A model generated the notes under the pieces. That model was given only the letters and a program-made list of their open reading frames with translations, made no database searches and was not told where the DNA came from. The translations under genes were made by a program, and so were the position numbers. From positions 15,312 through 79,311 of the IMG/VR virus record IMGVR_UViG_3300035698_027961: 64,000 bases of DNA; one strand, given 5' to 3'. Shown one piece after another: positions 9,250-29,042 of the stretch. The stretch's first letter is position 1. Each line of letters starts with the position of its first letter. The DNA is from a virus.

Positions 9250-9340
9250 CTTATCTCCTAAGCGGAGGCAACCCAAGATAGCGGGTGTCCCTGATTATAC
9301 TATTTAAATGCTAAATAATTAAAAAATATAGTTTGCTTTT

Positions 9341-10333
9341 TTAATTATTACCAATATATTTTTTGATTTGCGATAGTAGAGAATCTTCCGTAATAATGGC
9401 GGGACTAACCAGCTTATTTGATTTGGACCAAGAAGCAACTTCGCATAGAAATCTTGTACCTATTTCATTCATTGGTGCGGCGTTAGTTGTAATAATATCA
9501 CATCCAGATGCCTTAGCCTCATATAGGCTGAGCCCCAGGCCCTCCTGGCTCGATGGTGCGATAATACAACTAGACTCTCTATATATTTGACCCACTTCTT
9601 CTCTGGTTAAATCTTTTTCAATAATATTAACTTGAGGAATATTATATTTCGAGTCTAACGGGGATTTCTTAACTCCCGTTATATTTAGACTTATATCTGG
9701 ATATATAATTGCGGCCCGTGAGAAGGCACTTATAACAAGCCTGGTATTCTTGGATGAAAAGTTTGGATTCAGGCTTCCCTGGTGATAGAATACAATATTA
9801 TCAAGCTTCCTTCCCGGATAGAACAAATTGGAATCTGTGAATTTCCAGCTTACCCTTGATACGTTTCTAAGTCCTGCATTATTCAATGTTTCTTTGGTGA
9901 AATCAGTTACAGCCCAAATATCTTTGAATTTATTATAAAGATTTATTAACCTTGGGTTAACCCACTCTATCATCGGAACATCTATAACTGGTATTCCTAT
10001 TCCATCAATCCACTGAGATGATTCCATTAGAGTTTCTAATGATATCAATGCCTCCGCTTTATACTTGGATATTACCGACGCTATCTGCTGCTGATGATCC
10101 CTGCCGGAGTCAAAAATTGCGAAGCCATAGCCCTGAGAGTTGTGAGAGTGAAACTCTTTTCTGTAAATGCCATTTTCTTTTATGATTCTGCCTTTAGGTA
10201 TCAACCAAACCTGATGGCCCCTATCTTCTAATTCTTTCTTGAGAGTTAGGCCAAGATATAGAAGGCCCGAAGGATGATCATAAGTTTTAATCAGAAGTCT
10301 TTTTGGTAGATTTTGCAAGGTCCATCCTGTCAA
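9341..10333 (-). CDS. GT-B (GT4-like) glycosyltransferase
   Basis: PSSQEGLGLSLYEAKASGCDII (EX7E). Start position uncertain. Confidence 0.85.
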   Translation of the reverse strand: MTGWTLQNLPKRLLIKTYDHPSGLLYLGLTLKKELEDRGHQVWLIPKGRIIKENGIYRKEFHSHNSQGYGFAIFDSGRDHQQQIASVISKYKAEALISLETLMESSQWIDGIGIPVIDVPMIEWVNPRLINLYNKFKDIWAVTDFTKETLNNAGLRNVSRVSWKFTDSNLFYPGRKLDNIVFYHQGSLNPNFSSKNTRLVISAFSRAAIIYPDISLNITGVKKSPLDSKYNIPQVNIIEKDLTREEVGQIYRESSCIIAPSSQEGLGLSLYEAKASGCDIITTNAAPMNEIGTRFLCEVASWSKSNKLVSPAIITEDSLLSQIKKYIGNN

Positions 10334-11009
10334 TAGAGGCTTTTCTTATTTCTTTAATATTCTCTGCGTGCTTAAGCTGAATATCACTTCTCTGAGTTAG
10401 AGAACCGCCATTGGGAATAATTCGATAATAGTACATAACCTTGTGAATATATTCTATTGGGTATAGCTCACTGATTCTTAGCCAGTAATCATAATCTTCC
10501 GCTATCCAATACTTCTCATTGAATGGTCCAATTTTGTTAAAGACATCCCTTCTAATTGTTGTAGAGCCAGAGGCTACAAAGTTTTGGGACATAAGCCTTG
10601 AATGATTGATTATTATTTTTTGAGGATAGAACTGCGGCCTGACCCTTCCGTTTACCAATATCTTATAGTTTCCGCATACCATTCCAAGTTCTGGATTATT
10701 AATCATGGCATGAACAGAGCTGAATAATTTGTCTTGATTCATAATATCATCATCATCTAAAAAGCTAATCAAAGGTGCTGTGGTCATGGATATTCCATAG
10801 TTTCTAGCTCCACCAGGGCCCACATTTTCAGGCGTCTTGATGAAGTTAACCTGAGGATATCTTTTTTTCAAACCAGATATATCTGATGTTGAGCAATCAT
10901 CAACTACAGTAAGTTTGTAATCTTTATATGACTGATTTAGGCAACTATCAATAGCTTCGACTATATACGACTTGGGATTATAAGTCGGCATAATTATATC
11001 AACTTTCAT
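10287..11009 (-). CDS. GT2 glycosyltransferase
   Basis: IIMPTYN, VVDDCS, GARNYG, FLDDDD, EDYDYWLR. Confidence 0.93.
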   Translation of the reverse strand: MKVDIIMPTYNPKSYIVEAIDSCLNQSYKDYKLTVVDDCSTSDISGLKKRYPQVNFIKTPENVGPGGARNYGISMTTAPLISFLDDDDIMNQDKLFSSVHAMINNPELGMVCGNYKILVNGRVRPQFYPQKIIINHSRLMSQNFVASGSTTIRRDVFNKIGPFNEKYWIAEDYDYWLRISELYPIEYIHKVMYYYRIIPNGGSLTQRSDIQLKHAENIKEIRKASIDRMDLAKSTKKTSD

Positions 11010-11934
11010 ATTCTAAATACTTCCTCGCGTAATCTATTGGTGAGTTCTTAAGATTGTCTATAACGAATTGCCTTCCGTTGCTTGCAATCTTATCATAAAG
11101 AAGTGAGTCGCTCATTACTTCCTCTATGGCTTCGCAATAAGCATTTAAAGTTTTGGGAACTACTATCCCGTCGTGTCTATTAGATAGCTCTAAATTTATC
11201 TTGGGATGAATGATACACGGAATTTTAGCATAAAGCTGCTCAATTATGGTGCATCCCATTGTCTCGCTCAAGGATGTCGAGAAATAAATATGAGACTGCT
11301 TAGCAGAACGAATATGCTCAGAGTAATTATAAGGACTTGGGTAGCCTATAAATTTAAACTTAAACTGAGGAAGATTTTTTGCCACCAAGAGCGCAAAGTC
11401 TACATCCTTAACCATCTGCCTGGAATTACCCTTCCATAGAATGGTTCCATCATCATTGTGAACCGGCTCCCATAGATTTAAATTAGGAGCTATCCTGAGT
11501 AGGTCTATTTTATTATCGTCTATGCCATAGAGCCTGGCTATCTTTGATTTTAATTTATGATTTACCGTTAGTATTTTACTGAAAGCATCAATTTCAAGAT
11601 ATCTTGATTCTTCTTCTCGATTAACAGTATCTATCAGGTTTGGCCCGGATATTATCTTTATCGAATTATTAAACATTTTAATTATGTTTACAAACTCTAA
11701 TGAAATTCCGCTCCAATGATGTAGAACTTCTGATTTCTTAACAGAGGCTTTTATAGCTTTTGTATCTCGTAAATTCTTGACATTAGGATAAGTGCTTGGA
11801 ATTTTTGAAAAAACATTGACTTCGTAGCCGAGACCTCTGAGTGATTCCGCAAAGCTAACGAGAGAAACGCCGGGGCCATTAAAGTGGCATCCGGCGTTTC
11901 CATAATTAAAAGTTATTATGGTAACTGTTTTCAA
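10999..11934 (-). CDS. GT-B (GT4-like) glycosyltransferase
   Basis: STSLSETMGCTIIEQLYAKIPCI (EX7E). Confidence 0.8.
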   Translation of the reverse strand: MKTVTIITFNYGNAGCHFNGPGVSLVSFAESLRGLGYEVNVFSKIPSTYPNVKNLRDTKAIKASVKKSEVLHHWSGISLEFVNIIKMFNNSIKIISGPNLIDTVNREEESRYLEIDAFSKILTVNHKLKSKIARLYGIDDNKIDLLRIAPNLNLWEPVHNDDGTILWKGNSRQMVKDVDFALLVAKNLPQFKFKFIGYPSPYNYSEHIRSAKQSHIYFSTSLSETMGCTIIEQLYAKIPCIIHPKINLELSNRHDGIVVPKTLNAYCEAIEEVMSDSLLYDKIASNGRQFVIDNLKNSPIDYARKYLEYES

Positions 11935-11935
11935 C

Positions 11936-12253
11936 CTAAGAGTTCCTGTTAAATAAATCCTCTAGGGATTCTTTTCCCTTAAATCCAACCATTCTGTCTA
12001 CTTCCTTTCCGCCTCTAAAAACTATTAGGCATGGAATACTAGTTATTGAATATTGGGCCGAAATTGCTGGAAAATCAGATACATTTACCTTTCCAATACT
12101 AACCGCGCCATCATACTTCTCAGACATTCCGTCAAGAACGGGACCTAGAATCTTACATGGTCCGCACCAAGCGGCCCAAAAATCAACGACAACAGTCTTC
12201 TCATTTTGGATAAATTCGTTAAAGCTTTCGCTATTTAATTCTTCAACTGCCAT
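11936..12253 (-). CDS. trxA: thioredoxin
   Basis: VVDFWAAWCGPCK, SIP. Confidence 0.96.
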   Translation of the reverse strand: MAVEELNSESFNEFIQNEKTVVVDFWAAWCGPCKILGPVLDGMSEKYDGAVSIGKVNVSDFPAISAQYSITSIPCLIVFRGGKEVDRMVGFKGKESLEDLFNRNS

Positions 12254-12261
12254 AAAATCTC

Positions 12262-12477
12262 CTAGTGGACTTCGTAGTATGAATTAACGGACATATCTTC
12301 CATTATCATGACTAATACGCTATCCTGTTCATCTTTGCTCATTTTGACGAAATCTTCAAAAAGTTCTTTTGCATACTCTGAGGCCAGCGTTCTTATGTAG
12401 TTAGATTCACCACCACTTTTACTGTAAGCTTCCAGTATTCTTAAAGATTCCTCAAATGATCCTTTAGTTAGAAACAT
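12262..12477 (-). CDS. hypothetical protein (~71 aa)
   Basis: Start MFLTKG chosen because the longer ORF-track start lies inside the upstream small gene. Confidence 0.6.
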   Translation of the reverse strand: MFLTKGSFEESLRILEAYSKSGGESNYIRTLASEYAKELFEDFVKMSKDEQDSVLVMIMEDMSVNSYYEVH

Positions 12478-12622
12478 CTTTTTTATCCCCCGTATCCTCC
12501 TCTGTCTTTTTATCAGAGTCTTCAACAAGGTCATCTACGGTATATCTTTCTTCCTGTGAGGCTGTTTTGGCTCCGTCTTTCTTTACGAAAACCTTAACCT
12601 CTCCATCTTTCTTAAAACTCAT
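12464..12622 (-). CDS. small charged hypothetical protein (52 aa), missing from ORF track
   Basis: AGGAGG RBS, then MSFKKDGEVKVFVKKDGAKTASQEERYTVDDLVEDSDKKTEEDTGDKKDVSN*. Confidence 0.7.
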   Translation of the reverse strand: MSFKKDGEVKVFVKKDGAKTASQEERYTVDDLVEDSDKKTEEDTGDKKDVSN

Positions 12623-12691
12623 TAAGCCTCCTGGCACTATTTACAATAGTATATCCCAATATAAATATATTACCGCAAGGATTTGATTTTT

Positions 12692-14266
12692 TTAGATCAA
12701 TTTCAAGAACCTGAGGAACTTTAGAAGTAATGATTCCTTGGCGGTAGCAACCGGTTTATTTATATGATCGGAATCCTGGTCAGAAGTGTTATCCTCCGCG
12801 CCAGTCACCGAGTTTTCAAGGGCAGCCTCGTCCTTGGAATTTTGCAGAAAGTTCATTTTTTCTACTTCCAGTAAAATTAATCTAAGTGATTCGCGTAGTT
12901 TACTGATTTCGATATCTCTAGACTCATCTGAGGTTTCTTTTACATTTTTACCACCAGCCGAACCTAATTTTTCATTAAATGCCCGCACTAAATCTCTGCC
13001 TTTACTATAATCAATTGATCTTTTTATAGCTTTAGCGGGAGTAATCGTGTTTTTGTTCTTTCTAGGGCCATCTTCCGCTAAGGCAAACTCATCTATCGAC
13101 TGACTCTCTATAAGTCTTTTCTTAATGAGTATATCCCTACTTTTTTCACGTATCTTTATAAGTTTTTTAGATTCAGATTCAAGAAACTTAAGGTAAGCAT
13201 CGCCAGACATGCTCTGTGATAAATCTAGCCTCTCAGAAATATTTATTTTCTTCGGAGAGTCATCGGACGCATCTTCACAGGATAAGCTAAACCTATTTGC
13301 CTTAGCCCTCATGAATGTCTCTGCTGCCTTGCCCCTAAGGCCAGATTTGTAGTACTCGGCAGTCTCTCTCAGCCCATCATCAAAATTCTTTACAATATGG
13401 TATCCAAAAGATTCACTTGCCCAGCCGGTATCCGCCTGAGAGCATCTAACATCACCGGCCCGCTCTTTTCTGTAAAAAGGCTCCATACAACCTAACTTTT
13501 CGTGTAGCTCATTTACTGTAACTTTAATGCCGGAACCAACATTAAAGACCATATGTTTTAATGGCATTGAAAAAGTTGATGCCAAATAATTCGCCTCAAC
13601 TACGTTATCAACATGAGTGAAGTCACGGTATTGTTCACCATCCCCATGAATGATTGGCCTAATTTTTAATTTATTGCATTCTAAAAATGAAGATATTACC
13701 GAGGCATATGGTGAATCACCTCTCTGACGGTTGCCAAAAACATTAAAATACCTAAGACAAACAGTTTCATTCTTATAAATCTTGGAAAAAAGTTCGCAAA
13801 GTTCTTCGCCAAACTTCTTATGCATTGCGTAAGGAGACTTGGGGCTTAGAGGGGTGTCTTCCGGTGTTGGTAGAATCTGGGATCCTCCATAAACCGAAGA
13901 AGAGGATGAGAAGATAAATCTAGCACCGTGTTCTTTCGCAAGATTAAGAACATTAACCGTCCCCATAATATTTACATCTGATGTTTCAACAGGCTGCTCA
14001 ACCGAATAATACACTCCGGGAATTGCAGCAAGATGAAATACATAATCAGGCATAAAGCTATCAAAAACTTTCTGTAGTGATTTCATATCTCTGATATCAA
14101 CTTGTTCAAAGGAAAGGCGCGGATTATCACTATGCTGGTCTAAATTGGCTAGGTCTCCACGGCTTAGATTGTCAATCACACAGACTTCAAACCCCTTATA
14201 CATAAGTTTATCAACTAGGTGGCTTCCTATGAAGCCACATCCGCCAGTAACTATTGCTTTTTTCAT
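12692..14266 (-). CDS. NAD-dependent nucleotide-sugar epimerase/dehydratase (WbpP/GalE-like) with ~210-aa C-terminal extension
   Basis: TGGCGFIG, HLAA, SSSSVYG, SPYAMHK (YxxxK), RYFNVFG, GDGEQYRDF. Confidence 0.9.
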   Translation of the reverse strand: MKKAIVTGGCGFIGSHLVDKLMYKGFEVCVIDNLSRGDLANLDQHSDNPRLSFEQVDIRDMKSLQKVFDSFMPDYVFHLAAIPGVYYSVEQPVETSDVNIMGTVNVLNLAKEHGARFIFSSSSSVYGGSQILPTPEDTPLSPKSPYAMHKKFGEELCELFSKIYKNETVCLRYFNVFGNRQRGDSPYASVISSFLECNKLKIRPIIHGDGEQYRDFTHVDNVVEANYLASTFSMPLKHMVFNVGSGIKVTVNELHEKLGCMEPFYRKERAGDVRCSQADTGWASESFGYHIVKNFDDGLRETAEYYKSGLRGKAAETFMRAKANRFSLSCEDASDDSPKKINISERLDLSQSMSGDAYLKFLESESKKLIKIREKSRDILIKKRLIESQSIDEFALAEDGPRKNKNTITPAKAIKRSIDYSKGRDLVRAFNEKLGSAGGKNVKETSDESRDIEISKLRESLRLILLEVEKMNFLQNSKDEAALENSVTGAEDNTSDQDSDHINKPVATAKESLLLKFLRFLKLI

Positions 14267-15261
14267 TTAATTATCCTTTTTAGTGAGCCAATATCATTTA
14301 AATACATTTCTTTCAGAAGTTTCTTCCAGTCATAATTCGATGACCAACCAAGCTTATCGGAAGCCTTACTGGGATCGCCGCGTAAGAATAATACCTCGGA
14401 CGGCCTCATAAATCTAGAATCTTCCCTATATATATCTGAGAAATTTAATTCGGCCAGGCTACAGACGTACTCAAACATCTCTTTAATTGTAGCACCTGTT
14501 CCGGTAGAGATTAGATAATCATCAGGAGAATCTTGCTGAAGCATCATCCACATCGCTTTAACGAAATCCTTGGAGTGACCCTCATCCCTGAATGCTTCTA
14601 GATTTCCCATTCTTACTTCGGACTTAAGACCCAGCTTAACTGAGGCAACCCCCGATGTTATTTTCCTGGTTGCAAAGTCGTGCCCTCTTCTTGGGCTGGA
14701 ATGGTTGAATAACATTCCATTGCATGCAAAAATATCATAAGCTTCTCGATAGTTAATCACAGACCAGTATGCGGCAACCTTAGATACGCCATATGGTGAC
14801 CTGGGATGAAACGGTGAATCTTCCGTATATCCAGAGTTTGGACATCCGATACCTCCCCACATTTCGCTAGTGCTGGCCTGATAAAAACGAGTTGACGGAG
14901 AGAATTGGCGAATCAATTCTAGCTGATTAATGACAGCCTCAGAGTTAACCCTGAACGTTAATTGCGGCTCACAGAAAGACTGTCCGACATTTGACATTGC
15001 GGCCAAGTTATACCATTCATGTGGCTGATAATCATGCAGGACTCTTGAGATAAGTGTTGGGTCTAAAATATCACCATATATAATTTTAAAATTATCATTA
15101 GGTAATAGATGCAGAACGTTATCTATACATAGGTATGTACTCTTTCGCCTAGTTATTCCGATAACGGTATAGCCTTTGCTTAGCAAGAGTTCTGACAGAT
15201 ACGATCCATCCTGACCGGCGACTCCAGTAATTACCGCAGTTAGTCCCTTATGAGTTGTCAA
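14263..15261 (-). CDS. gmd: GDP-mannose 4,6-dehydratase
   Basis: ITGVAGQDGSYL, NLAAMS, YQASTSE, PRSPYGVSK, LFNH.SPRRG..F.TRKIT, RPSEV; AGGAG RBS before TTG. Confidence 0.92.
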   Translation of the reverse strand: MTTHKGLTAVITGVAGQDGSYLSELLLSKGYTVIGITRRKSTYLCIDNVLHLLPNDNFKIIYGDILDPTLISRVLHDYQPHEWYNLAAMSNVGQSFCEPQLTFRVNSEAVINQLELIRQFSPSTRFYQASTSEMWGGIGCPNSGYTEDSPFHPRSPYGVSKVAAYWSVINYREAYDIFACNGMLFNHSSPRRGHDFATRKITSGVASVKLGLKSEVRMGNLEAFRDEGHSKDFVKAMWMMLQQDSPDDYLISTGTGATIKEMFEYVCSLAELNFSDIYREDSRFMRPSEVLFLRGDPSKASDKLGWSSNYDWKKLLKEMYLNDIGSLKRIIK

Positions 15262-15469
15262 TTATATCTCCTGTGCGACGATCATAAAAATAAGCCAATA
15301 CGTCTTTCAAAACACTCCACACAAGGTGCGCGGCCTTTATCCATATTTGAAATTTTTTCCATGTTATATATTAGGTACCTTATCTCTTTTCCAATGGCCC
15401 CGAAAAAATCATATTTTATTTCTTTTGATATTTAAAATTTAACAATATAGCTTAGGAATCAGAAAATAA

Positions 15470-15856
15470 CTAATCCTCCAGTTCAAAGTATTCAACGGCA
15501 GCTTTTGAAAATTGACGTGCGGTCATATTAGAAATTTCCTCTAACCTGTCTATATTATAGAGTAGGTATTCTTTTTCCAGCTCGGTAAATATAGGAGAAT
15601 TTGAAATAAGATCAAGAGCCTTGCCTGGGTCTTTTTCTAGCAACTTAATTGAAGCAACCTTATTAATCCAGGCGTATGAAAAATCTTTATTTGAATCGTT
15701 ATTCGAATTAAAATTTTCATAAAATGCACTAGATTTGTAAGCATCCTTTAGCTTATCGACTCTATCATATATATCTGTTTCTTTACCTTCTGGCTCATCT
15801 TTAGAGAATCTAGAGGATTTTTTCTCAACTCTTTTTACAACGCCACCTTTACTCAT
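15470..15856 (-). CDS. hypothetical protein (128 aa)
   Basis: ORF; shares a short helical motif with the neighbouring ORF. Confidence 0.65.
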   Translation of the reverse strand: MSKGGVVKRVEKKSSRFSKDEPEGKETDIYDRVDKLKDAYKSSAFYENFNSNNDSNKDFSYAWINKVASIKLLEKDPGKALDLISNSPIFTELEKEYLLYNIDRLEEISNMTARQFSKAAVEYFELED

Positions 15857-15860
15857 TCGA

Positions 15861-16448
15861 TTATCCTAAGTTATCTTTGATTATTTTTTTAATTTGTTCT
15901 ATATTTTCAAACTTGGAAAATAAATAGCCATATTTTCCGAAATTGTTCATAGAAAATATAACGTTAGTCTTTGATTCTTCAGAGATTAATATGGATGACA
16001 TTATAGAAGAGAATGCTTCGGGTTCTTTTAAAGTACTTTCGCAACGATTACCAAGTGCGTTAAAGGGAAATGGAATACTAAGCTGTTTTTGGTCTTTCAT
16101 ACCAATCACTAATAACGTTGAATTTATTATATCTAATTTCGCTAAATCTGTGATATATTCGTTATTAATTATATCATTTAAATATTTTGCCATTTTAGAA
16201 CTAGATGATCCATCTTTATGAAGCTTAATTAAATTATTCTTAAAATCTTGCTTAAGGAGCCCAATTAGATGTTCCGTTAAGATATTCTTTTCGGTCTCAT
16301 TGAAAGTTGCCGTAGATAAAATCTCTTTTATAAAAGTTTCTTTATCTTTTTCATTTTTTACTAGCGCATCTTTGAACTCTCTGGCGCACGATGATGCCCG
16401 AAGCCTTCTTTTCCTCTCTTCGCTATCCAATTCAGTTAAAGTTGTCAT
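15861..16448 (-). CDS. hypothetical protein (195 aa)
   Basis: ORF in operon-like packing. Confidence 0.65.
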   Translation of the reverse strand: MTTLTELDSEERKRRLRASSCAREFKDALVKNEKDKETFIKEILSTATFNETEKNILTEHLIGLLKQDFKNNLIKLHKDGSSSSKMAKYLNDIINNEYITDLAKLDIINSTLLVIGMKDQKQLSIPFPFNALGNRCESTLKEPEAFSSIMSSILISEESKTNVIFSMNNFGKYGYLFSKFENIEQIKKIIKDNLG

Positions 16449-16452
16449 ATAC

Positions 16453-17253: not shown

Positions 17254-17263
17254 ACTTAATCCT

Positions 17264-20094: not shown

Positions 20095-20095
20095 A

Positions 20096-20776: not shown

Positions 20777-21383
20777 CTTTTCTTACCATGTAGATTGTTT
20801 TAAATATTCGTTCAAATGCTAAGCCGTGAGAGTTAATTTTCTTTAAAAATTCATGTAATTCTTCCTCGGTATCCCTCCTGATGCCAAACCTAGAGATATC
20901 CATGATGACGCATCCATGGCTCTTAAATGATTCTAGTAGCTTATCGGTATTTTCATTATTATAGGTTGAGACGAAATTAAATGTTATTAACAAATCGTAC
21001 AGATTACTATTTGGAAATCTATCCAATAATAACTTAAACTTGCCTGCATTTTTGAATTTATTAGAAACCATTGACTTTAAATGCTCTGAATCATCCAACC
21101 TATCCTTTCTGACCTCAATACCTGTAACATTATTAAATCCCAAAGCCGATAGTGCAATAGGTATCTGGCCCATGCCGCATCCAGGTTCGCATATTGCAGC
21201 ATTCTTATCAAACTCCTCGCTAATGAATTTGATTATTTCTATTTCGGATTCCCCGAGAGCCATTCCTTGCGAAATTTTTGTAGAGTAGTAGTTATCGAAA
21301 GCTTCTCTAGTCTCACATATATGCTTGATCTGTTCGGTCATAATCTCATTTATCTTTTTAATTTTTTGCATCCCCATCACCAT
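20769..21383 (-). CDS. class I SAM-dependent methyltransferase
   Basis: ICEPGCGMG, VTGIE, YDLLI. Start could be 21377 or 21371. Confidence 0.8.
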   Translation of the reverse strand: MVMGMQKIKKINEIMTEQIKHICETREAFDNYYSTKISQGMALGESEIEIIKFISEEFDKNAAICEPGCGMGQIPIALSALGFNNVTGIEVRKDRLDDSEHLKSMVSNKFKNAGKFKLLLDRFPNSNLYDLLITFNFVSTYNNENTDKLLESFKSHGCVIMDISRFGIRRDTEEELHEFLKKINSHGLAFERIFKTIYMVRKVD

Positions 21384-22479: not shown

Positions 22480-23516
22480 TATATTATTCCGTTTATACTT
22501 CTTAGCAGAGAGCCGAAATCATGGTTAATTTCTACTCTACTCTCTGACTTTATCAGTGACGCTGACTTTTCAACCCACTCATCTACATCATATATATCAC
22601 TACAAACAGAGCTATCAGGATATAGTTCGCTCCATCCGCAATTATTAGAAACTAAAATATTTGAACCTGCCATAATTGCCTCCTTAATAACGTTCGGAGA
22701 GGCGTCGTAATATGATGTGCAAATAACTAATTTTGAATTTTGAATTATTTTAATAACTTCAGTTTGATTCATCAGGTTATACTTTTTGCAGTTACTAACT
22801 CCTGCAAAAATATTGCTCCCTTCACCTATAACTACTTTTTTATTGCTTTTGAACGATTTATTTGACATCAATTTTAAAGCCAACTTTGAATTTTTAACTG
22901 GCCTATTTAGATTAGAGCATATGAACGCTATGTCTATTTCCCTATCTGAGAATTTTTTCCCAATTTCTATTTTATGATTAAATGCCATAGATGTATCTAT
23001 CGGTTGCTTAATTTTTTTATTTTTCCCGTAGTTCTTAATTAGTATTTTTGATGCCTGATGGCTATTGGGAATTACTAAGTCTGCCTTTTTAACACAGGAT
23101 GCCTCGGGAGCAAAAAATAAAGGTTCCATTCTTGATTCTGTATAGCTGACGGATGATATATTTCTAGATGATAATTCAGACATCTGTGGCGAACCTGTTA
23201 CTAGATAAACATTTTTTACCCCAGGAAACATAGGCCCTGAAATAACCGGGGCAGCATAGTTTTTTGACAAAATTATATCAGGAGTACCCTTCAGATACTT
23301 TTCAATTATCTTTACAGCCATCTGTTTACTGTCTCTATCGCCAATTCTAAAAACTCCACCTATGTTGTCTATATCTACAACCACGTCTTTGTTTTCAAAG
23401 AAAATACAGGCAACGGTGTGGCCGTGAAATCTTAGATACTTTACTAAAGCATAAGAGTTTGTAGCTGCGCCACCATAATAAGGATACTGAGTGCTAGTAA
23501 TTAATATTTTAGACAT
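22479..23516 (-). CDS. GT-B (GT4-like) glycosyltransferase
   Basis: KILI...YP..GGA, PNS, PVKN, SYYDASPNVIKEA; TAATG coupling to the upstream gene. Confidence 0.85.
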   Translation of the reverse strand: MSKILITSTQYPYYGGAATNSYALVKYLRFHGHTVACIFFENKDVVVDIDNIGGVFRIGDRDSKQMAVKIIEKYLKGTPDIILSKNYAAPVISGPMFPGVKNVYLVTGSPQMSELSSRNISSVSYTESRMEPLFFAPEASCVKKADLVIPNSHQASKILIKNYGKNKKIKQPIDTSMAFNHKIEIGKKFSDREIDIAFICSNLNRPVKNSKLALKLMSNKSFKSNKKVVIGEGSNIFAGVSNCKKYNLMNQTEVIKIIQNSKLVICTSYYDASPNVIKEAIMAGSNILVSNNCGWSELYPDSSVCSDIYDVDEWVEKSASLIKSESRVEINHDFGSLLRSINGII

Positions 23517-24400
23517 TATATTTTTATAAACTCGATAAAAGCTCGACTTCTTAATTCCCATGACCAATTCTGTTCTATTTGGTCTCGAAGATAAATTCCA
23601 TTTTTAGAAACCTGCTCACTGGTGGTTGAAATGATGGTCTTTTTTAATGCAGCTTCTGTTGAGACGATTGCTATGTCTTTATTCCTATTAATTAGCTGAG
23701 GAACATTTCCAACATTGGTTGATATAATGTTTCTACCACATGATGCCGCTTCAAGAATTGGATTTGGTGTTCCCTCGGAAGTGCTAAAGCAAATTAATGT
23801 GCCTATCGAGTTATAAAATTTATTCATTTCTTGACGGCCGTATCCACTCTTATGAGTCGCAATCTTAAGTGTTGATTTAACATCTTTTAATGCAAATATT
23901 TTTTCAATTACATCAAATCTCTTCACATCCCTATCACGATTTCCAACCCAACCAAAAACACTAGCATACTCTGATGGATCGCTGATGGGCTTAAAAAAAT
24001 CTGATTCGACGCCAAAGGGAGTATTAAATATTTTTATACCAAGGCTAGCGCATGGCTGCTTAAACTCATTATACAAATAATTACTCGAAGTACTTATTGC
24101 GTCATATATAATAAAAGACTTAGCCATCTTATCAGCCTTCGGTCTTCCGACATGGCTTGATACGGTAGTAATTAACCTATAGGATCTCTTGCCTCTGGGA
24201 TCTAGATACTTATTTATAATTCCATATATTGGCCAGTTTAGAAGATAAACTATGTCGAACCCGTCTAGATCGGACCTTGACTTAATCTCTTTAAAGTGAG
24301 TTATTTTGCTTGTATGTTCAGGAAGGTACTTAACCAGTGCATTTGCCCTGCTTGATAATGCCCAATTATAACTATCAACTACATAGAGTACATTTTTCAT
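23516..24400 (-). CDS. GT-B (GT4-like) glycosyltransferase
   Basis: PFGV, GWVG, STSEGTPNPILEAASCG..IISTNVG; ATGA coupling. Confidence 0.88.
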   Translation of the reverse strand: MKNVLYVVDSYNWALSSRANALVKYLPEHTSKITHFKEIKSRSDLDGFDIVYLLNWPIYGIINKYLDPRGKRSYRLITTVSSHVGRPKADKMAKSFIIYDAISTSSNYLYNEFKQPCASLGIKIFNTPFGVESDFFKPISDPSEYASVFGWVGNRDRDVKRFDVIEKIFALKDVKSTLKIATHKSGYGRQEMNKFYNSIGTLICFSTSEGTPNPILEAASCGRNIISTNVGNVPQLINRNKDIAIVSTEAALKKTIISTTSEQVSKNGIYLRDQIEQNWSWELRSRAFIEFIKI

Positions 24401-25317
24401 ACGGCATCGCCAAGAACTGACTCCCACGATGATATAAAATCCTTGATGTGAAAATGCTTAATAGCTATTTCGCGAGCTGAGTTGCCAAAATCATTTCTCA
24501 TCATAGATGAGCCAAGAAGTCTCTTTATTTCCAGAACTATTTCTTTATCATCATTTGATAAAATAGCGTTCTTTTTATGAGCAAAGTACTTAGATATTTC
24601 GTAATTATTTGTAGATACAATTGGCATTCCGCACATAGCTGCTTCGGCTCGACTTCTCGGCATGGCGGAAGAGTGAGTTGGATTAAAATATACACTGTAA
24701 GAGTTATATATTCTTATCAGCTGTTCAAAATCTTCAGCCTGTCTATCTACTTTATATAGATCCAGGTTGCCATGCCCAACTACGTCAGCTATCTGAAGTT
24801 TGGAAGAAACCCTATCCCATAGCGGAAATCCCATAACATGAGATCTTGACCTGAAAGCATTTGCTACTGTAAGAATTCTTTTATTTTTTTCCAAATTTAA
24901 ATTACAAAATTCTTCAGGATCATATCCATGAACTATATAATAGTGCCTTTTATCTGGAAACTTTTTGCTGTAGTTAGTCATAACATCGAGAGAGTTCCAC
25001 ACAACATGCCGACAGTAGCTAGGTATGTCAAATGGGGTGGTGGTTTGAACTACCGCTATAGGAACTGCACCTTTCTTAACGAAGTATGAAACTCTTTCAC
25101 GCTGAACTGGAGATCTGACAATAACTACATCAAAATTTTCATCTCTTAGGCTTGCCTCATCGGATAATGTTATATTTTCATTAAGAGGTCGGTGTTTTTC
25201 GTTCCAGCTTGGAATCTTTTTATTTGCACCAACCAAGCATATATCATGATTTATTTTGGCAAATTCTCTCTGATGCCCCTGATGAACATACCAGTCTAAA
25301 ATCTTAAGTCTTGTCAT
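24397..25317 (-). CDS. GT-B (GT4-like) glycosyltransferase
   Basis: VHGYD, YFNPT..S.MPRS..EAAMCGMPIVS. Confidence 0.85.
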   Translation of the reverse strand: MTRLKILDWYVHQGHQREFAKINHDICLVGANKKIPSWNEKHRPLNENITLSDEASLRDENFDVVIVRSPVQRERVSYFVKKGAVPIAVVQTTTPFDIPSYCRHVVWNSLDVMTNYSKKFPDKRHYYIVHGYDPEEFCNLNLEKNKRILTVANAFRSRSHVMGFPLWDRVSSKLQIADVVGHGNLDLYKVDRQAEDFEQLIRIYNSYSVYFNPTHSSAMPRSRAEAAMCGMPIVSTNNYEISKYFAHKKNAILSNDDKEIVLEIKRLLGSSMMRNDFGNSAREIAIKHFHIKDFISSWESVLGDAV

Positions 25318-26408
25318 ATTTTTATAATCTCCATCTCTATAAGTTTTGATACATTTTCAACGCTCATAGAATTTGCAATTTCGGAACATAAAGTACCTTT
25401 ATCTTTATATTTTTTATGATTGATATATACATCTTTTAGTAATTCGGACAAGTGCAACTCGCTTGGATATGCCCACCTCTGATAATTTCCATATAGGTGG
25501 GACCACTCCATATCTGATACGGGGCCCAGGTTATGATTTATAATGTGGGCAGAATTATTATCCAGGTATTCCGTAACGCCGCCATACTTGGTTGTCACAA
25601 TCTGCTTACCCATTCTCATAGCGTCATGAATGGGCATGCCCCAGCCCTCACCATGATGCGGGGCAACATAGCAGTCTCCAGTATTATGAAGCATCTTAAT
25701 AAATCTGCTGGAAATAACCTTGCTTGAAAGATATATGGGTGGATAGTATTTTAAATTAAGCTCTCTCTTTAAATTTATGATATCTGGCCTTATCAAGTCT
25801 TCTGTGTGCCCGGCTATATTTAGAGGGTTTACTTTTAATATTAAGATAACATCGTCTTTTTTAGAAAAAGCTTTATAGTACGAGCGAAGTAGGGTCTTCC
25901 AATTCTTTCTATTCTGCCATTGAAATATTGAATAAAATTTATAAGTCTCATCGCTAACTACGTAATCTCTTGAAAAGCCTGACGGAATTTGAATTTTCTC
26001 TTTAGCTGTCCAGTCGTTACATGGCGTTGGAATTACTTTAATCTCACCCCTGTACTTTGAAGCTATGCAGGCTTCTTTAACTAATTCGCATGGAACCCAC
26101 AATTCGTCGACCTGATTAATACTATGAGACCACGACCTAGGAAGCCTGTCAGCTTCCCAATAAAAGTAGCCAACCTTATAAGAATTACTCTTATGCCTGT
26201 TATATGGTGGGCAGTGAAGATAAAAGTCTATTTCAGTTTTTCCCTCATAATTATTTAGCTTAGATATGACCGAATTTTTGTCACTTACGGGTGATAGTTG
26301 AAATTTTGTATTTACGCTCGAAATAGCAAAAGCTTTTGCAAAGTTAGCAACAGCGTTGCCATAACCCGTATGAGAGCTTAATGGGCCAAAAAATCTAACC
26401 GCCTTCAT
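25314..26408 (-). CDS. GT-B (GT4-like) glycosyltransferase
   Basis: TGYG, YWE.D.LP..W, RKN, HGEGWGMPIHDAM; AGGAGG RBS. Confidence 0.9.
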   Translation of the reverse strand: MKAVRFFGPLSSHTGYGNAVANFAKAFAISSVNTKFQLSPVSDKNSVISKLNNYEGKTEIDFYLHCPPYNRHKSNSYKVGYFYWEADRLPRSWSHSINQVDELWVPCELVKEACIASKYRGEIKVIPTPCNDWTAKEKIQIPSGFSRDYVVSDETYKFYSIFQWQNRKNWKTLLRSYYKAFSKKDDVILILKVNPLNIAGHTEDLIRPDIINLKRELNLKYYPPIYLSSKVISSRFIKMLHNTGDCYVAPHHGEGWGMPIHDAMRMGKQIVTTKYGGVTEYLDNNSAHIINHNLGPVSDMEWSHLYGNYQRWAYPSELHLSELLKDVYINHKKYKDKGTLCSEIANSMSVENVSKLIEMEIIKI

Positions 26409-26417
26409 TGCCACCTC

Positions 26418-27941
26418 CTATACATATTCGCCTTGCAATATATCTATACTTTTATCGACCTGTGTATATCGTGTCCCTACGGATTCGAGAATGTCAATAA
26501 AGCTTTTCTGTATTGTTTTTATATCGTGATTCCCTGCAACATAATTTCTTGCCGACATAATAACATCCAGCCTATCTATGTTTTTCAATATTAATTCAGC
26601 ATCCACTTTGGCATCCCCAGATATTGCGAAACATGTTTTGCCATCAGTGAGTATGTCCGGAATGGCGCCGACCATATTTGAAAAGACTGGAACCCCAGAA
26701 GACATAGCTTCCAATATTGATATGGGTGTCCCCTCCATATTAGATGCTAAAACGAAGGCATCAAAAGATGGAACATATTCGTGAACATTATTTTTATGCC
26801 CTAGAATTTTAAAGTTACTTAGATCTTTTGCTAAAATCTTTAGCGATTTTCTTTCGGGTCCATCACCTATAACCACTATGGTATCGTTTTTTAAAACTTT
26901 AGCTAAGTCTATAAGATACTCTATATTCTTTTCTTTAGATAGCCTGGCCACCGTTCCTATAACACTCCCATTGAAATTTGATAAGTAATTATTTTTTACA
27001 TCAGACGGATAAAATAAATCAGAATCTATTGGTATTGGCAACACAGATCTCTTGAATTCCCCACTTATGTTGGCGGCTAATGATTTGGATACCACAATCA
27101 TATGTTCAAGCTCTTCTCTCGATGTTACCTTTGATAAAGAGCCTGACCATTCAAAATCGCTGTGATAAATCTCCATCAGGTAACTTGATATTTTGCCCTC
27201 TTTCTTAAGAGCAATCATCCTTCTATAAATATCCTCACTGTTATAATACAGAACTATATCATAGTCATTGGATATCATGTGACCTGGCAAATGCACCGGG
27301 GACTTTAATAGTACGTGAGATACATTATCCTGCGTGATTAAATTCTGAAGATTGTTTTGCCTGAGATAGACAATCACGAAGTCAATCGAGTTAGTTTCGG
27401 AAATTAAGTTCTTAATATATATCTCTGCTCCGCCACAAATTTGATACGGAACAATAAAGCAGACTTTTCTTTTAAACTTTTCTGATGCCACGATATCTAA
27501 TACATGGGCGTTTTTAGCTATTTGTGGTTCAGACTCCTTACTTAATATGGCTTTTTTTATTTTTTCAGCCACGTCTTCTTCTTGAGATATAATAATTCTT
27601 CCTATCTCTACGCTTCCGTATATATTCCTGTCTCTAGATATTCTAATTATACACTGCCCGTAATTCTTTTTGACATTCATACTTGCAGAAAAATTGGCCA
27701 AACTTGTGCCAAAATTAATTTCTTGGCTTAATATGATATCATTTTGCCCACTAAGAATCTCTAATAATATCTTGCCATTACCGGATCTCTTTTTGCCCAT
27801 GATTTTGATCATATGCTGGCCTGATTTCAAATTAATATCATGATAAAAGCTAGAGGACTTTAGCGCAAGAATACTGTTGCCTCTAATTTCAAAACTTTTA
27901 CCAATCCATTTTTTTGCATCTATAGAGTCAAATACTTTCAT
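26418..27941 (-). CDS. GT4 glycosyltransferase with N-terminal beta-rich accessory domain
   Basis: GGAE, GTVARLSKEKN, IGDGPER, SNMEGTPISILEAMSSGVPV; ~150 extra N-terminal residues. Confidence 0.92.
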   Translation of the reverse strand: MKVFDSIDAKKWIGKSFEIRGNSILALKSSSFYHDINLKSGQHMIKIMGKKRSGNGKILLEILSGQNDIILSQEINFGTSLANFSASMNVKKNYGQCIIRISRDRNIYGSVEIGRIIISQEEDVAEKIKKAILSKESEPQIAKNAHVLDIVASEKFKRKVCFIVPYQICGGAEIYIKNLISETNSIDFVIVYLRQNNLQNLITQDNVSHVLLKSPVHLPGHMISNDYDIVLYYNSEDIYRRMIALKKEGKISSYLMEIYHSDFEWSGSLSKVTSREELEHMIVVSKSLAANISGEFKRSVLPIPIDSDLFYPSDVKNNYLSNFNGSVIGTVARLSKEKNIEYLIDLAKVLKNDTIVVIGDGPERKSLKILAKDLSNFKILGHKNNVHEYVPSFDAFVLASNMEGTPISILEAMSSGVPVFSNMVGAIPDILTDGKTCFAISGDAKVDAELILKNIDRLDVIMSARNYVAGNHDIKTIQKSFIDILESVGTRYTQVDKSIDILQGEYV

Positions 27942-29023
27942 GATAATTCCAGTATCTTTCTTGCGGCGTTTTCCCAGGTAAATTCATTGACCGTTTTGTC
28001 CGCAGAGTCTCTAAAGTTTTCAAATAGGTCTTTGCTTTTATATGCGGAAAGCATAAGCTCTGCAAGATGATCTTGCTTAGGGATAAATGTTTTTGCACCC
28101 TCACTGGGAATCCAATACTGGTATCTTGCGTCTGCCTCTATTTCAGAAACATCACATAGTAAAGAATTTGAATCATTAAGAAAGTCTAATTGGCCTGTAC
28201 ACCTTGGCGCTATAACTAGCTTCTTTGCGGCCAGTGCTTCCAGCATTGGCATACCGAAGCCTTCTGATGATGAAGCGCTGACTAGAGCGTCACAGGCATT
28301 GTATAAGGGTGTCATACTCGGAAGCCTATCACGAACTACCTCTACAGACGGGAGGCCTCCTGGCCTGCCCATATGCCTCTTCTGGGCAGAGATAATTATA
28401 TCCCTAACATTAACCTCGAATTGATATTTTCGCTTGCTGGGTTCAAGCTTGGTCTTAAGAACTAGGCAGGTATCGTCCTGGTCTGAAAATGCAGAGTAAT
28501 AAGCGTTAAGAACTACGTCGATATTTTTTCTATAATGAGGTATCGATATATTTAAGAATTTAAATCTACGCCCTGAGCTCAGCCTATACTCAGAATTATC
28601 TTTAAAATCCTCAATATTAATTCCATGTGGAACTACTATGCATTTTTCCTCAGGCCATCCGGCCTTGGTAAAGACTTCCTTGGAGAAGTTACTTGACGGA
28701 AGAACGAAGTCTACAAATCGGTGACTACCTTTCCAGTGCTCGGGAAGTATGTCGGTCTCATAGTTATAAATAGCCATCTTATTCTTGGATGACTTTCTAA
28801 ATCTAGATTCAAAATTTCTAGGAAGTGTATAACAAATATCTATGTCTGGGTTACTAAGCTCTTTATCTAGTCTAACCATAAGTTCTTTTGGAATTAATGA
28901 AGTTCCATTGGTTGATTTTAAATACAAATTATGATTTAGCCTTCTAAACTGAAGCAATATATTTCTCATGACAACCGACCATGAGTGGTCAGTCCCCAGC
29001 ATAGTACAAGATCTTATATTCAT
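27938..29023 (-). CDS. GT-B (GT4-like) glycosyltransferase
   Basis: YET..LP..W, VPHG, RKN, SSEGFGMPMLEALAA. Confidence 0.9.
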   Translation of the reverse strand: MNIRSCTMLGTDHSWSVVMRNILLQFRRLNHNLYLKSTNGTSLIPKELMVRLDKELSNPDIDICYTLPRNFESRFRKSSKNKMAIYNYETDILPEHWKGSHRFVDFVLPSSNFSKEVFTKAGWPEEKCIVVPHGINIEDFKDNSEYRLSSGRRFKFLNISIPHYRKNIDVVLNAYYSAFSDQDDTCLVLKTKLEPSKRKYQFEVNVRDIIISAQKRHMGRPGGLPSVEVVRDRLPSMTPLYNACDALVSASSSEGFGMPMLEALAAKKLVIAPRCTGQLDFLNDSNSLLCDVSEIEADARYQYWIPSEGAKTFIPKQDHLAELMLSAYKSKDLFENFRDSADKTVNEFTWENAARKILELS

Positions 29024-29042
29024 CAGGTCCACCTTAAGACAA

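Follow-up and report, generated by a model that had tools for sequence, protein, structure and literature searches.

A gene cluster of about 20 kb in a jumbo phage encodes a long-resident, clade-wide and entirely soluble glycan assembly line. It occupies positions 9341-29032 of the window, the 64,000-nucleotide stretch analysed here (positions 15,312 to 79,311 of IMG/VR record IMGVR_UViG_3300035698_027961), with every gene on the minus strand. The carrier is an uncultured salt-lake phage. Families were called with Pfam at curated cut-offs, and weaker items were taken from Atlas feature search scores or a sub-threshold Pfam match.

29088-43418, minus: 1511-aa and 3247-aa acidic giant proteins, candidate acceptors, downstream of a gp6/J-like baseplate gene (position and one domain)
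29033-29087, minus: spacer from the 1511-aa gene to GT-A, with a weak AT-rich hairpin and T-run, then a -10-like element (sequence inspection)
27938-29032, minus: GT-A, 364-aa GT-B/GT4 glycosyltransferase, first of four invariant ones (Pfam)
26418-27941, minus: gene GT-B, 507 aa, predicted CBM-like jelly-roll (residues 1-121), linker and retaining-type GT4 catalytic fold (Pfam 8.8e-25, AF2 models)
25314-26414, minus: GT-C, 366-aa GT-B-type glycosyltransferase, invariant in the clade (Pfam)
24397-25317, minus: GT-D, 306-aa GT-B-type glycosyltransferase, invariant in the clade (Pfam)
23516-24427, minus: GT-E, GT-B-type glycosyltransferase (Pfam above cut-off)
22479-23567, minus: GT-F, GT-B-type glycosyltransferase (Pfam above cut-off)
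21358-22479, minus: 373-aa polysaccharide-deacetylase-like ORF, a lead (Atlas 0.95 to polysaccharide deacetylase clusters)
20769-21383, minus: weak SAM-methyltransferase-like ORF (Pfam below cut-off, E 0.0024)
20096-20776, minus: Sulfotransfer_3, PAPS-type sulfotransferase (Pfam 3.6e-9)
18907-20094, minus: 395-aa probable ninth GT-B-type (GT4-like) transferase (Atlas 0.98 to GT4 clusters)
18200-18968, minus: 171-aa and overlapping 89-aa ORFs (no family match)
17264-18199, minus: GSCFA-family protein (PF08885, 7.8e-43)
16453-17286, minus: short UDP-sugar 6-dehydrogenase, 277 aa (Pfam above cut-off)
15470-16448, minus: 195-aa and 128-aa ORFs (no family match)
14263-15261, minus: Gmd, GDP-mannose 4,6-dehydratase (Pfam 1.2e-102, TIGR01472 3e-100)
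12692-14266, minus: WbgU/GalE-like UDP-hexose (or HexNAc) 4-epimerase, residues 1-310, with C-terminal extension (Pfam 2e-58)
12262-12534, minus: 90-aa ORF (no family match)
11936-12253, minus: thioredoxin (Pfam Thioredoxin 9e-27)
10999-11934, minus: GT-G, GT-B-type, in the conserved 3′ transferase trio (Pfam above cut-off)
10287-11009, minus: GT2, same trio (Pfam 1.2e-28)
9341-10333, minus: GT-H, GT-B-type, same trio (Pfam above cut-off)
7822-9276, minus: TubZ/PhuZ-like tubulin, linked to the cluster (Pfam Tubulin 7.3e-12, TubZ-like_C 7.8e-7)

A first-pass annotation had described a phage-encoded, soluble and complex pathway starting right after the last structural gene. ORF positions and profile matches agree with the gene content and coordinates it gave, and the pathway is old in the clade. 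The cluster begins 55 nt after the 1511-aa ORF, which is itself preceded by the 3247-aa ORF and by gp6/J-like and gp25-like baseplate genes. The single GT2, Gmd, epimerase, nucleotide-sugar dehydrogenase, sulfotransferase and GSCFA protein named there all passed curated Pfam cut-offs. Eight of its nine GT-B-type transferases did so too; the ninth is a GT4-like lead (Glycos_transf_1 at only 14.4 bits, below the cut-off) with an orthologue of 46% identity in the related contig L023. Its one or two methyltransferases came down to a single sub-threshold ORF, and its deacetylase-like protein to an Atlas lead with no Pfam, NCBIfam or PDB sequence match. In a Kyte-Doolittle scan for membrane helices (19-residue window) no cluster ORF reached a mean of 1.6, and therefore its statement that no membrane protein is present holds for the window. 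The thioredoxin, the five small family-less ORFs and a 210-residue epimerase extension were absent from that annotation.

Glycosyltransferases, sugar-nucleotide and tailoring enzymes

GT-A matched phrog_2170 (6.6e-30) and has orthologues with 51-61% identity in 14 contigs and 535 metagenome homologues on contigs of up to 420 kb, and no close relative among 185,579 prokaryote species genomes. Among solved structures, the nearest to it is chlorovirus B736L (3oy2), a weak similarity (E 1.2e-6) to an enzyme whose own acceptor is unknown. By tblastn, GT-A and GT-C matched Streptomyces, Flavobacterium, Rhodococcus and Microcystis phages. Structure comparison of the predicted models of gene GT-B (AF2, pLDDT 81 and 85) places its catalytic part near HepE, PimB', BshA and PglA, with WbnH, WaaG and MshA as further solved neighbours. 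The modelled N-domain resembles CBM4, CBM16, CBM36 and a porphyran-binding CBM (Z 12.5-13.2, with 112-124 residues aligned at an rmsd of 2.1-2.7); its one highest-scoring match was a Vip3 toxin domain (Z 13.5). The nearest named relatives of GT2 are TuaG, EpsD, PglI and WcaA, all matched below cut-off. All transferases have a basic computed pI (7.6-9.5), and that of the N-terminal halves of the GT-B-type proteins is 8.9-9.5.

Gmd shares 60-69% identity with phage relatives versus at most 51% with the best cellular genomes. The epimerase extension has no known family, and relatives carry the epimerase alone. The short dehydrogenase retains its NAD domain and its central domain, cysteine motif GGxCFPKD included, lacks the C-terminal UDP-binding domain, and recurs at 262-285 aa in relatives. 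Relatives also have a clear methyltransferase, and their sulfotransferases, two to three in number, belong to other Pfam families. The GSCFA protein would be a tailoring enzyme, perhaps an acyltransferase or an esterase. The 89-aa frame may be a remnant, because its match to a protein that measures 285-294 aa in relatives covers only about 55 residues at the C-terminus; four metagenome runs showed no indel variants at 18200-18968, and it is therefore not an assembly slip. A 208-nt spacer separates the 195-aa and 128-aa ORFs from Gmd, and loose contig ends mark strain breakpoints at 15336-16359 and, in the thioredoxin region, at 12153/12187. The thioredoxin, in the same place in related contigs L039 and L046, and the 90-aa ORF are probably passengers.

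To judge by these families, three enzymes (Gmd, the 4-epimerase, the short dehydrogenase) would divert host GDP-mannose and UDP-sugars into donors, presumably a 6-deoxyhexose, an epimerised hexose or HexNAc, and a uronic acid. Nine or ten transferases would then make one linkage apiece, GT-A to GT-D being common to every relative, while gene GT-B might grip the growing chain through its CBM-like domain. Decoration of the chain would fall to the sulfotransferase, the methyltransferase, the GSCFA protein and the deacetylase-like protein. The product, formed in the cytoplasm, would be an acidic hetero-oligosaccharide that differs from strain to strain.

Conservation in related jumbo phages

About 20 related IMG/VR jumbo-phage contigs carry the fibre-like giants, GT-A to GT-D and a hypervariable middle, followed 3′ by the dehydrogenase, epimerase, Gmd, GT-G, GT2, GT-H and tubulin. 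The order of the giants is invariant, their arrangement with GT-A to GT-D is identical in at least 10 distinct contigs (33-61% identity), and the 3′ block extends to tubulin in about 15. Among relatives the middle is swapped, bringing in DegT, a WbpB-like oxidoreductase, acetyltransferases, an amidotransferase, GlmS, PMM, a cupin and other sulfotransferases; GT-E and GT-F occur in about half of them. Decaying capture of a host locus, an origin raised earlier against the annotation's own reading, is ruled out, with about 20 relatives keeping the block. GT-H and tubulin form one reading frame in 8 of about 15 related contigs, placing at least GT-H in the cytoplasm; in the window a 64-nt spacer splits them, with TAGTATAAT, AGGAG and an ATG at about 9249.

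No priming transferase (Bac_transf, WecA-type) or Wzx was found in G000, the 94%-complete relative G001 or G002, where positive controls worked; nor was a polymerase found in G001 or a multipass protein in the glycan clusters of G001 and G002. In G001, Glycos_transf_1 genes occur at this locus and nowhere else. Inside the cluster of four relatives, a membrane protein of about 130 aa has four helices, a size and topology seen in small lipid-sugar flippases; it matched no Pfam or NCBIfam family and is not encoded in the window.

The same searches bear on DNA hypermodification, in which the transferases would glycosylate modified phage bases and so block host nucleases. Phages do glycosylate their DNA, at times with more than one sugar (10.1101/2023.12.21.572611; PMC13326640). 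However, no hydroxymethylase of the thymidylate-synthase family was present in G000, G001 or G002, again with working positive controls; the Tet_JBP search matched nothing, its positive control included, and carries no weight. Sulfation, methylation, a deacetylase-like enzyme and ten transferases go far beyond known DNA glycan systems, and a CBM-like domain would be unexpected in a DNA-directed enzyme. We consider this explanation highly unlikely.

Promoter-like element upstream of GT-A

The spacer hairpin fell short of the criteria of the terminator scan. The -10-like element AGGTATTAT lies at 29050-29042, 10 nt upstream of the GTG start of GT-A; the window contains GGTATTAT 8 times, where 2.9 occurrences would be expected, and TGGTATAAT, TGGTAAAAT or TACAAT lies 6-9 nt upstream of the GT-A ATG in 7 of 11 lineages. 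Since it has its own element, the cluster is not simply the end of the tail/structural operon, and since an element of the same kind precedes the helicase and cyclase genes, late co-expression with virion genes is not implied.

Candidate acceptors of the glycan

We tentatively favour, at somewhat less than even confidence, a chain built on virion proteins. The glycan would be assembled directly on them, before or during particle assembly and with no lipid carrier involved; the likeliest acceptors would be the very acidic giants encoded just upstream (pI about 4.5). These may be fibre-like or distal baseplate proteins, judging from their position and one lectin-type domain (Laminin_G_3 in the 3247-aa protein, 3.7e-10); neither matched a PHROG or PDB sequence. 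Gene content and solubility, the order kept in relatives, the lack of Bac_transf, WecA-type and Wzx proteins, the confinement of G001's Glycos_transf_1 genes to the locus, a phage-side GT-A closest to a chlorovirus structure, and the GT-H-tubulin fusion are consistent with virion acceptors, as are precedents in PMC9614988 and mycobacteriophages. The swapped middle is the pattern expected of a surface-exposed glycan, and basic transferases would complement acidic giants. Counting against it, the giants showed neither a Ser/Thr-rich nor a repeated stretch that could serve as acceptor.

The first-pass annotation had moved from the lack of membrane parts to virion proteins, a step we find unsupported, as soluble transferases could use a host primer, flippase and ligase. 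Soluble GT4 and GT2 enzymes normally act on host lipid-linked acceptors, and those of O-antigen, capsule and teichoic acid pathways likewise have no membrane helices, so their absence here decides nothing. The host envelope is only slightly less probable a destination than virion proteins: transferases at the inner face of the host membrane would extend a lipid-linked primer (undecaprenyl-PP-GlcNAc) or wall polymer, and a host flippase or ABC exporter and ligase would place the sulfated glycan on the cell surface. Peripheral membrane enzymes of GT-B type are usually basic, as all GT-B-type proteins here are. The named relatives of GT2, though below cut-off, act on undecaprenyl-linked chains, and PglA, WbnH, WaaG and PimB' stand among the structural neighbours of gene GT-B. 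Replication-module genes have the same kind of -10-like element, which suggests that the cluster is expressed independently of the virion operon, and the four-helix protein is flippase-sized. In Bacillus phage G, which has the same module order, unrelated genes occupy the cluster's position, so baseplate adjacency may only mark a module boundary. The basic enzymes, four-helix protein, -10-like element and phage G boundary all speak against the step to virion proteins, and a hypervariable middle is also expected if enzymes must match differing host strains. Published readings of similar cyanophage and pelagimyophage clusters favour host surface change (PMC7824862 section 3.4.10; PMC7029224). 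However, the surface-conversion cassettes known so far make do with one to three genes rather than twenty, G001 at 94% completeness encodes no primer transferase, flippase or polymerase, the four-helix protein lacks a family and is missing from the window, GT-A has no close cellular relative, and the last transferase is tethered to cytoplasmic tubulin in many relatives.

Fairly unlikely is another soluble product acting in the infected cell or lysate, neither on particle nor envelope: a free or secreted oligo- or polysaccharide, a glycosylated small molecule, or a glycosylated non-virion phage protein such as tubulin. BshA and MshA, neighbours of gene GT-B, use small soluble acceptors, GT-H is fused or coupled to tubulin across the clade, no carrier of any kind was identified, and the CBM-like domain fits a polymer of any destination. 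An internal metabolite would nevertheless hardly call for ten different transferases or for a serotype-like variable middle; an export system is absent, and we know of no phage precedent.

Comparison with known glycosylation clusters

GT-rich clusters adjoining tail fibres were already known from pelagimyophages and cyanophages; new here are the CBM-like domain predicted on gene GT-B, the cluster's own -10-like element, the basic pI of all transferases and, in many relatives, the fusion of GT-H to tubulin. The host recognition cluster of pelagimyophages and cyanomyophages and the cyanophage 'LPS' clusters (PMC7029224; PMC7824862 section 3.4.10; PMC12801897) likewise belong to large aquatic myophages. 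They combine, over tens of kilobases of hypervariable region, tail-fibre genes with many transferases, epimerases/dehydratases and a UDP-glucose dehydrogenase, and in both systems the acceptor is putative. In contrast, the present lineage is nearest among cultured phages to Bacillus phage G (baseplate protein, 30% identity) rather than T4-like, is GT4- rather than GT8-dominated, and has a fixed four-transferase head block and a fixed tail block up to the tubulin gene. It also carries sulfotransferases, a GT4 with a CBM-like domain and a dehydrogenase that is truncated.

Bacterial Wzx/Wzy- or ABC-dependent O-antigen and capsule loci share GT4, GT2, Gmd, a WbgU-like epimerase, Ugd, tailoring enzymes and conserved flanks around a swapped centre, whereas the phage cluster has no priming transferase, flippase, polymerase, chain-length regulator or exporter and sits between the tail and replication modules.

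The annotation's comparison with giant-virus fibrils is fair as an analogy, although the host recognition cluster is the nearer precedent. Megavirinae fibril and chlorovirus capsid glycosylation also rely on soluble systems that the viruses themselves encode, in clade-specific clusters that range from 6 to more than 30 genes, with sugar-nucleotide pathways, many transferases, methyltransferases and sulfate-related genes (PMC9614988). These viruses, which fall in a different realm, have eukaryotic hosts, and their glycans were shown chemically on fibrils or capsid, whereas the present system is known from genes alone. Some mycobacteriophages are reported to be tailed phages whose own soluble transferases, encoded next to structural genes, attach glycans to capsid and tail proteins (Freeman et al. 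2023, as summarised in PMC12619734). No mycobacteriophage homologue of GT-A or GT-C was found by tblastn. Glycosylating mycobacteriophages are not known to carry more than a few transferases, or any sugar-nucleotide or sulfation genes.

If the chain is built on virion proteins, these jumbo phages would resemble chloroviruses, Megavirinae and some mycobacteriophages in bearing glycans on capsids, fibrils or tails. If it is placed on the host envelope instead, it would mask receptors against superinfecting rival phages or spare progeny from cell debris.

Genomic setting and enzyme content of the cluster

The window is the final 64 kb of a 79,311-bp viral contig lacking terminal repeats, and every long ORF in it lies on the minus strand. 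Transcription proceeds from virion genes, including those for a gp25-like protein and a gp6/J-like baseplate wedge protein (phrog_6, 1.5e-43), through two giant proteins to the glycan cluster (29032 down to 9341), and then to tubulin, helicases, a DnaC-like loader and DnaB. The first-pass annotation placed the start of the cluster right after the last structural gene, in agreement with the gap of 55 nt found between it and the gene for the 1511-residue giant protein, itself downstream of the gp6/J-like baseplate gene. The two giant proteins, of 3247 and 1511 residues, are acidic (pI ~4.5), and we call them fibre-like from their position and from a concanavalin-like lectin domain in the larger one. 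Neither had a match in a PHROG family search, and for the 1511-aa protein a PDB sequence search gave no solved relative and a peptide-pattern search for relatives found nothing. Tracts rich in Ser/Thr, as possible acceptor sites, were seen in neither.

The phage is uncultured, and the public runs containing it are salt-lake metagenomes of DNA only, amounting to four data sets. Its baseplate J protein has Bacillus phage G as best cultured relative (30% identity), and no match to the cluster as a whole was returned by megablast among 50,697 phage records.

Family calls were made with Pfam cut-offs, and weaker leads were taken from an Atlas feature search. Eight GT-B/GT4 glycosyltransferase (GT) genes, named GT-A to GT-H in gene order, and one GT2 gene between GT-G and GT-H passed the cut-offs, while the ninth GT-B gene of the first-pass annotation is a lead only. 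Gmd (1.2e-102), a WbgU/GalE-like 4-epimerase, a nucleotide-sugar dehydrogenase, a sulfotransferase (Sulfotransfer_3) and a GSCFA protein, all listed before, were clear by family search. As for the remaining entries, the methyltransferase is a weak match and the deacetylase-like protein is an Atlas lead only. A thioredoxin, several family-less small ORFs and a long C-terminal extension of the epimerase had been missing from that list.

Features of the cluster in the window
18907-20094, minus strand: candidate ninth GT-B gene, a lead (Pfam 14.4 bits, Atlas 0.98)
16453-17286, minus strand: UDP-sugar dehydrogenase, 277 aa
12692-13324, minus strand: C-terminal extension of the epimerase, 210 residues
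18699-18968: 89-aa frame that overlaps the 395-aa GT4-like ORF at its end

The UDP-sugar dehydrogenase is without its entire C-terminal UDP-binding domain. A decaying gene was considered and rejected, as the short form (262-285 aa), in each case without that domain, recurs in at least 7 related contigs and the window protein retains the GGxCFPKD catalytic cysteine motif; since it is kept in this way, the short enzyme may act with a partner or on another substrate. For the epimerase extension neither a family nor a solved relative was found, and PDB sequence searches with the 373-aa ORF, the 395-aa ORF and this extension found nothing. In related phages the epimerase stands alone, and one of them, G002, has a 209-aa sulfotransferase at the position matching the extension. 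The similarity of the 89-aa frame to a 285-294-aa protein of the relatives is confined to the final ~55 residues of that protein, and the frame may be left over from a gene since replaced. Many GT-A orthologues carry the precomputed annotation 'GT4-conflict' (PF20706), which our Pfam scan did not report and of which a literature search found no mention.

Conservation of the cluster in related phages

Searching with tubulin and GT-A reached about 20 IMG/VR contigs from one jumbo-phage clade, among them G001 (316,664 bp, judged 94% complete) and G002 (223 kb). All region-spanning contigs have, in this order, homologues of the 3247-aa and 1511-aa proteins, GT-A, GT-B, GT-C and GT-D, with 33-61% identity, so that the synteny with baseplate-linked genes proposed earlier as a check is kept, the giants being followed by GT-A to GT-D. 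GT-E and GT-F often come next. The other end consists of the short dehydrogenase, epimerase, Gmd, in some cases a cupin, GT-G, GT2, GT-H and tubulin, and its GT-G-to-tubulin stretch is present in nearly all of ~15 contigs, some of which are without dehydrogenase and epimerase. The head and tail blocks are constant and the middle is swapped, giving clusters of 18-39 kb across relatives. For example, the middle of the ~39-kb cluster in G001 holds a WbpB-like oxidoreductase, a DegT aminotransferase, two hexapeptide acetyltransferases, an asparagine-synthase-type amidotransferase, a phosphomannomutase, a methyltransferase, two sulfotransferases and unrelated cargo; that of G002 holds a cupin, two sulfotransferases, DUF6395 and a second GT2, and GlmS is found in the middle of other relatives. 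Every Glycos_transf_1 gene of G001 lies inside this single glycan locus.

The unrelated cargo interrupts the G001 cluster at 256564-259950, 246679-250047 and 246220-246678, and comprises a 1128-aa PARP-NUDIX protein, a 1122-aa PcfJ-like protein, a 710-aa multi-HTH protein and a small MotA/ExbB-like membrane protein. The same cargo has coordinates 1565-4951 on contig L012, and 11680-15048 and 11221-11679 on contig L011.

A large protein collection contained 535 GT-A homologues, the best 120 of which are all at least 50% identical and come from contigs of up to 420 kb, and no close relative of GT-A was present among 185,579 prokaryote species genomes. Gmd has 60-69% identity among the phage relatives, compared to at most 51% to the best cellular genomes. 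Judged by these sequence comparisons, the cluster is old, clade-wide and phage-resident. A decaying or recently captured host locus was considered and rejected, given the clade-wide synteny, the lack of close cellular kin of GT-A and the phage-distinct Gmd.

Contigs from the four salt-lake runs span the whole cluster at ~99% identity with zero insertions or deletions, so the odd reading frames are not assembly errors. They diverge from the window at 12153-12187, 15336-16359 and 18297-18300, around the thioredoxin and small unknown ORFs, and the enzyme genes are ~99% identical between samples. These break sites look like strain-level replacement points within the cluster.

A carbohydrate-binding-like domain in GT-B and a GT-H-tubulin unit

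An AlphaFold model of GT-B from 11 orthologues (pLDDT 81) consists of an N-terminal beta-sandwich, a linker and a GT4 fold, the catalytic part resembling HepE, PimB', BshA and PglA by model comparison. Modelled alone (pLDDT 85), the N-domain aligned with CBM4, CBM16, CBM36 and a porphyran-binding CBM at Z 12.5-13.2 and rmsd 2.1-2.7 over 112-124 of 127 residues, and its single best structural row was a Vip3 toxin domain (Z 13.5). The modelled CBM-like fold fits a GT-B that would grip the glycan chain during extension, although a shared fold by itself proves no function. All GT-B-fold transferases are basic (pI 7.6-9.5; N-halves 8.9-9.5), and the sugar-nucleotide enzymes are neutral, compared to pI ~4.5 for the giant virion proteins. 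The basic charge fits membrane-associated enzymes acting on lipid-PP acceptors and docking on very acidic proteins equally well.

In 8 of ~15 related contigs, GT-H and a TubZ/PhuZ-like tubulin are joined in a single frame of 800-831 aa; in the remaining contigs the two genes overlap or abut. The window differs: GT-H and tubulin (7822-10333) are kept apart by a 64-nt spacer containing TAGTATAAT, AGGAG and ATG, that is, a -10-like element, a Shine-Dalgarno sequence and a start codon of its own.

GT-H-tubulin fusions in related contigs and genomes
L037, 8969-11464
L040, 8978-11383
L042, 6500-8902
L043, 8984-11389
L044 and L045, fusion present
G001, 236212-238635
G002, 141964-144438

Promoter-like elements

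A scan for sigma-70 promoter and terminator consensus over the cluster gave chance-level counts (75 against 71.6 and 7 against 12), after which the promoter reading was based on the few true intergenic spacers. The 55-nt spacer 5′ of GT-A contains AGGTATTAT. The octamer GGTATTAT, which is also found upstream of the helicase gene and of a cyclase gene outside the window, occurs with T/A/G-G before it in three of those few spacers, and was counted 8 times in the window against 2.9 expected.

Sites of GGTATTAT in intergenic spacers
7775-7782
29043-29050
~18 nt upstream of the cyclase gene (-4398 to -4325 in window numbering)

In 7 of 11 lineages, TGGTATAAT, TGGTAAAAT, TACAAT or a similar sequence lies 6-9 nt 5′ of the GT-A start, and AAATAGTAT, tried as a second promoter motif, was not enriched. 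GGTATTAT is probably the -10 element of one phage promoter class. We infer that it is a host sigma-70-type extended -10, which would imply early or middle expression. Read from its -10-like element, the cluster would be a separate transcription unit, and with an element of its own the argument that it shares an operon with the tail genes falls away.

Membrane parts, donor supply and the acceptor of the glycan

Soluble GTs and sugar-pathway genes are clustered in this virus, and no ORF of the window cluster has a membrane-spanning hydrophobic stretch, in keeping with the earlier claim that no multi-pass membrane protein is visible. Parts of a Gtr/Oac-type cassette, namely a GtrA flippase, a membrane-anchored GtrB and a periplasmic GT-C or acyltransferase, were likewise not seen, the window cluster having no membrane protein and the GT2 being a soluble protein of 240 aa. 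No priming transferase of the Bac_transf or WecA type was matched in the related genomes G000, G001 (94% complete) and G002, by searches whose controls were positive in 9 and 12 of 14 genomes. Nor was a Wzx-type flippase in the same three, with positive controls, by a model search that covered the Polysacc_synt family. APS kinase was absent from G000-G002, which indicates PAPS from the host, and NTP_transferase was found in G001 only far from the glycan cluster. The phage therefore appears, from its gene content, to rely on host PAPS and host sugar activation.

According to the enzyme families, host GDP-mannose and UDP-sugars would be converted to 6-deoxyhexose, epimerised and uronic acid donors, and nine or ten transferases would then add one linkage each. 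The chain would be sulfated, methylated and perhaps acylated or deacetylated, and the product would be an acidic heteroglycan that differs among related phages.

The gene content described in the first-pass annotation was confirmed. Of its interpretation, a soluble, conserved and modular set of glycan enzymes stands; the further step, that the acceptor is virion proteins, is plausible at somewhat less than an even chance. In favour of virion proteins are the size and self-sufficiency of the pathway, GT families specific to phages, the link to tubulin, the precedent of giant viruses and the absence of a membrane part from a relative that is nearly complete. Against them stand the cluster's own putative -10 element, the basic GTs, a predicted membrane protein of the relatives, the layout of phage G, and giant proteins that have no recognisable acceptor tract. 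The complete scheme, a self-contained cytoplasmic protein glycosylation of giant-virus scale, in which a sulfated, methylated and strain-variable heteroglycan is built carrier-free on the giant tail-fibre-like proteins and the last GT is carried on or tethered to tubulin filaments of the phage, we consider less likely than not as a whole.

The predicted membrane protein has ~130 residues and four predicted helices; in four relatives it is encoded within the glycan cluster, between cupin and GT-G/GT2. It belongs to no Pfam or NCBIfam family and has no counterpart in the window. Its size and topology are like those of small lipid-sugar flippases of the GtrA, ArnE or SMR type.

Predicted four-helix protein in related contigs
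L042, 4461-4853
L043, 7892-8293
L044, 6984-7376
L045, 4284-4688

Lipid-linked pathways ordinarily use soluble GT4 and GT2 enzymes, which also counts against the virion proteins, and the four-helix protein is a lead for a glycan that modifies the host envelope via the carrier, flippase and ligase of the host. The gene for the four-helix protein is missing from the window, and we hold modification of the host envelope to be a tentative but serious possibility. Another soluble or non-virion product is rather improbable. DNA hypermodification, the alternative named in the first-pass annotation, is most improbable: the proposed check for base-hydroxymethylating enzymes, run on G000-G002 with positive controls, detected no hydroxymethylase of the thymidylate-synthase family (PF00303), which leaves this alternative weak. 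TET/JBP dioxygenase (PF12851) had no match in the three genomes, but its control matched nowhere either, so that this negative carries no weight.

Relation to known glycan loci and significance

The feature is real and widespread, and its pattern is already known. The nearest published pattern is the host recognition cluster (HRC) of pelagimyophages and cyanomyophages, a hypervariable region of ~34-45 kb with tail-fibre genes and many GT/LPS-type genes, read as modification of the host O-chain (PMC7029224); here, too, many GT and sugar-nucleotide genes are contiguous with fibre-like and baseplate genes. The cyanophage 'LPS' clusters that PMC7824862 (section 3.4.10) takes up in connection with jumbo phages come near as well, as does a cyanophage carrying 13 GTs (PMC12801897). 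Among systems in which a virion glycan has been proven, the fibril clusters of Megavirinae and the capsid glycosylation of chloroviruses come closest (PMC9614988). GT-A matched chlorovirus B736L (E 1.2e-6), the acceptor of B736L itself not being established (PMC9614988). Virion glycosylation of mycobacteriophages appears as a cited result in PMC12619734, and no mycobacteriophage homologues of GT-A or GT-C were matched. In comparison to HRC-type and virion-glycan systems, our locus probably belongs to another phage lineage. It is further set apart by the constant head block of four GTs, the GT4 with its CBM-like domain, several sulfotransferases, the shortened dehydrogenase and a tail block that closes with the GT-tubulin unit. 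Unlike Wzx/Wzy or ABC-dependent loci, it is without a priming transferase or Wzx-type flippase, as searched in G000-G002. Bacillus phage G has the same baseplate-to-replication layout, but unrelated small genes occupy the place of the glycan cluster; this position may simply be a module boundary that collects cargo.

Large aquatic phages repeatedly spend 20-40 kb, about one tenth of their genome, on glycan synthesis near host-recognition genes, and to our knowledge the product or acceptor of such loci has been measured in no case. The present clade is widespread, and the architecture of its cluster is unusually clean, with a fixed four-GT head, a swappable centre and a fixed tail. A glycan coat on the virion would place tailed phages beside giant viruses as autonomous glycosylators, with a bearing on adsorption, the stability of particles in brine and phage serotypes. 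Should the glycan reach the host surface instead, no phage-driven surface conversion known so far would be as elaborate. In both cases, the GT-A to GT-D block and the CBM-bearing GT4 are concrete proteins for expression and assay.
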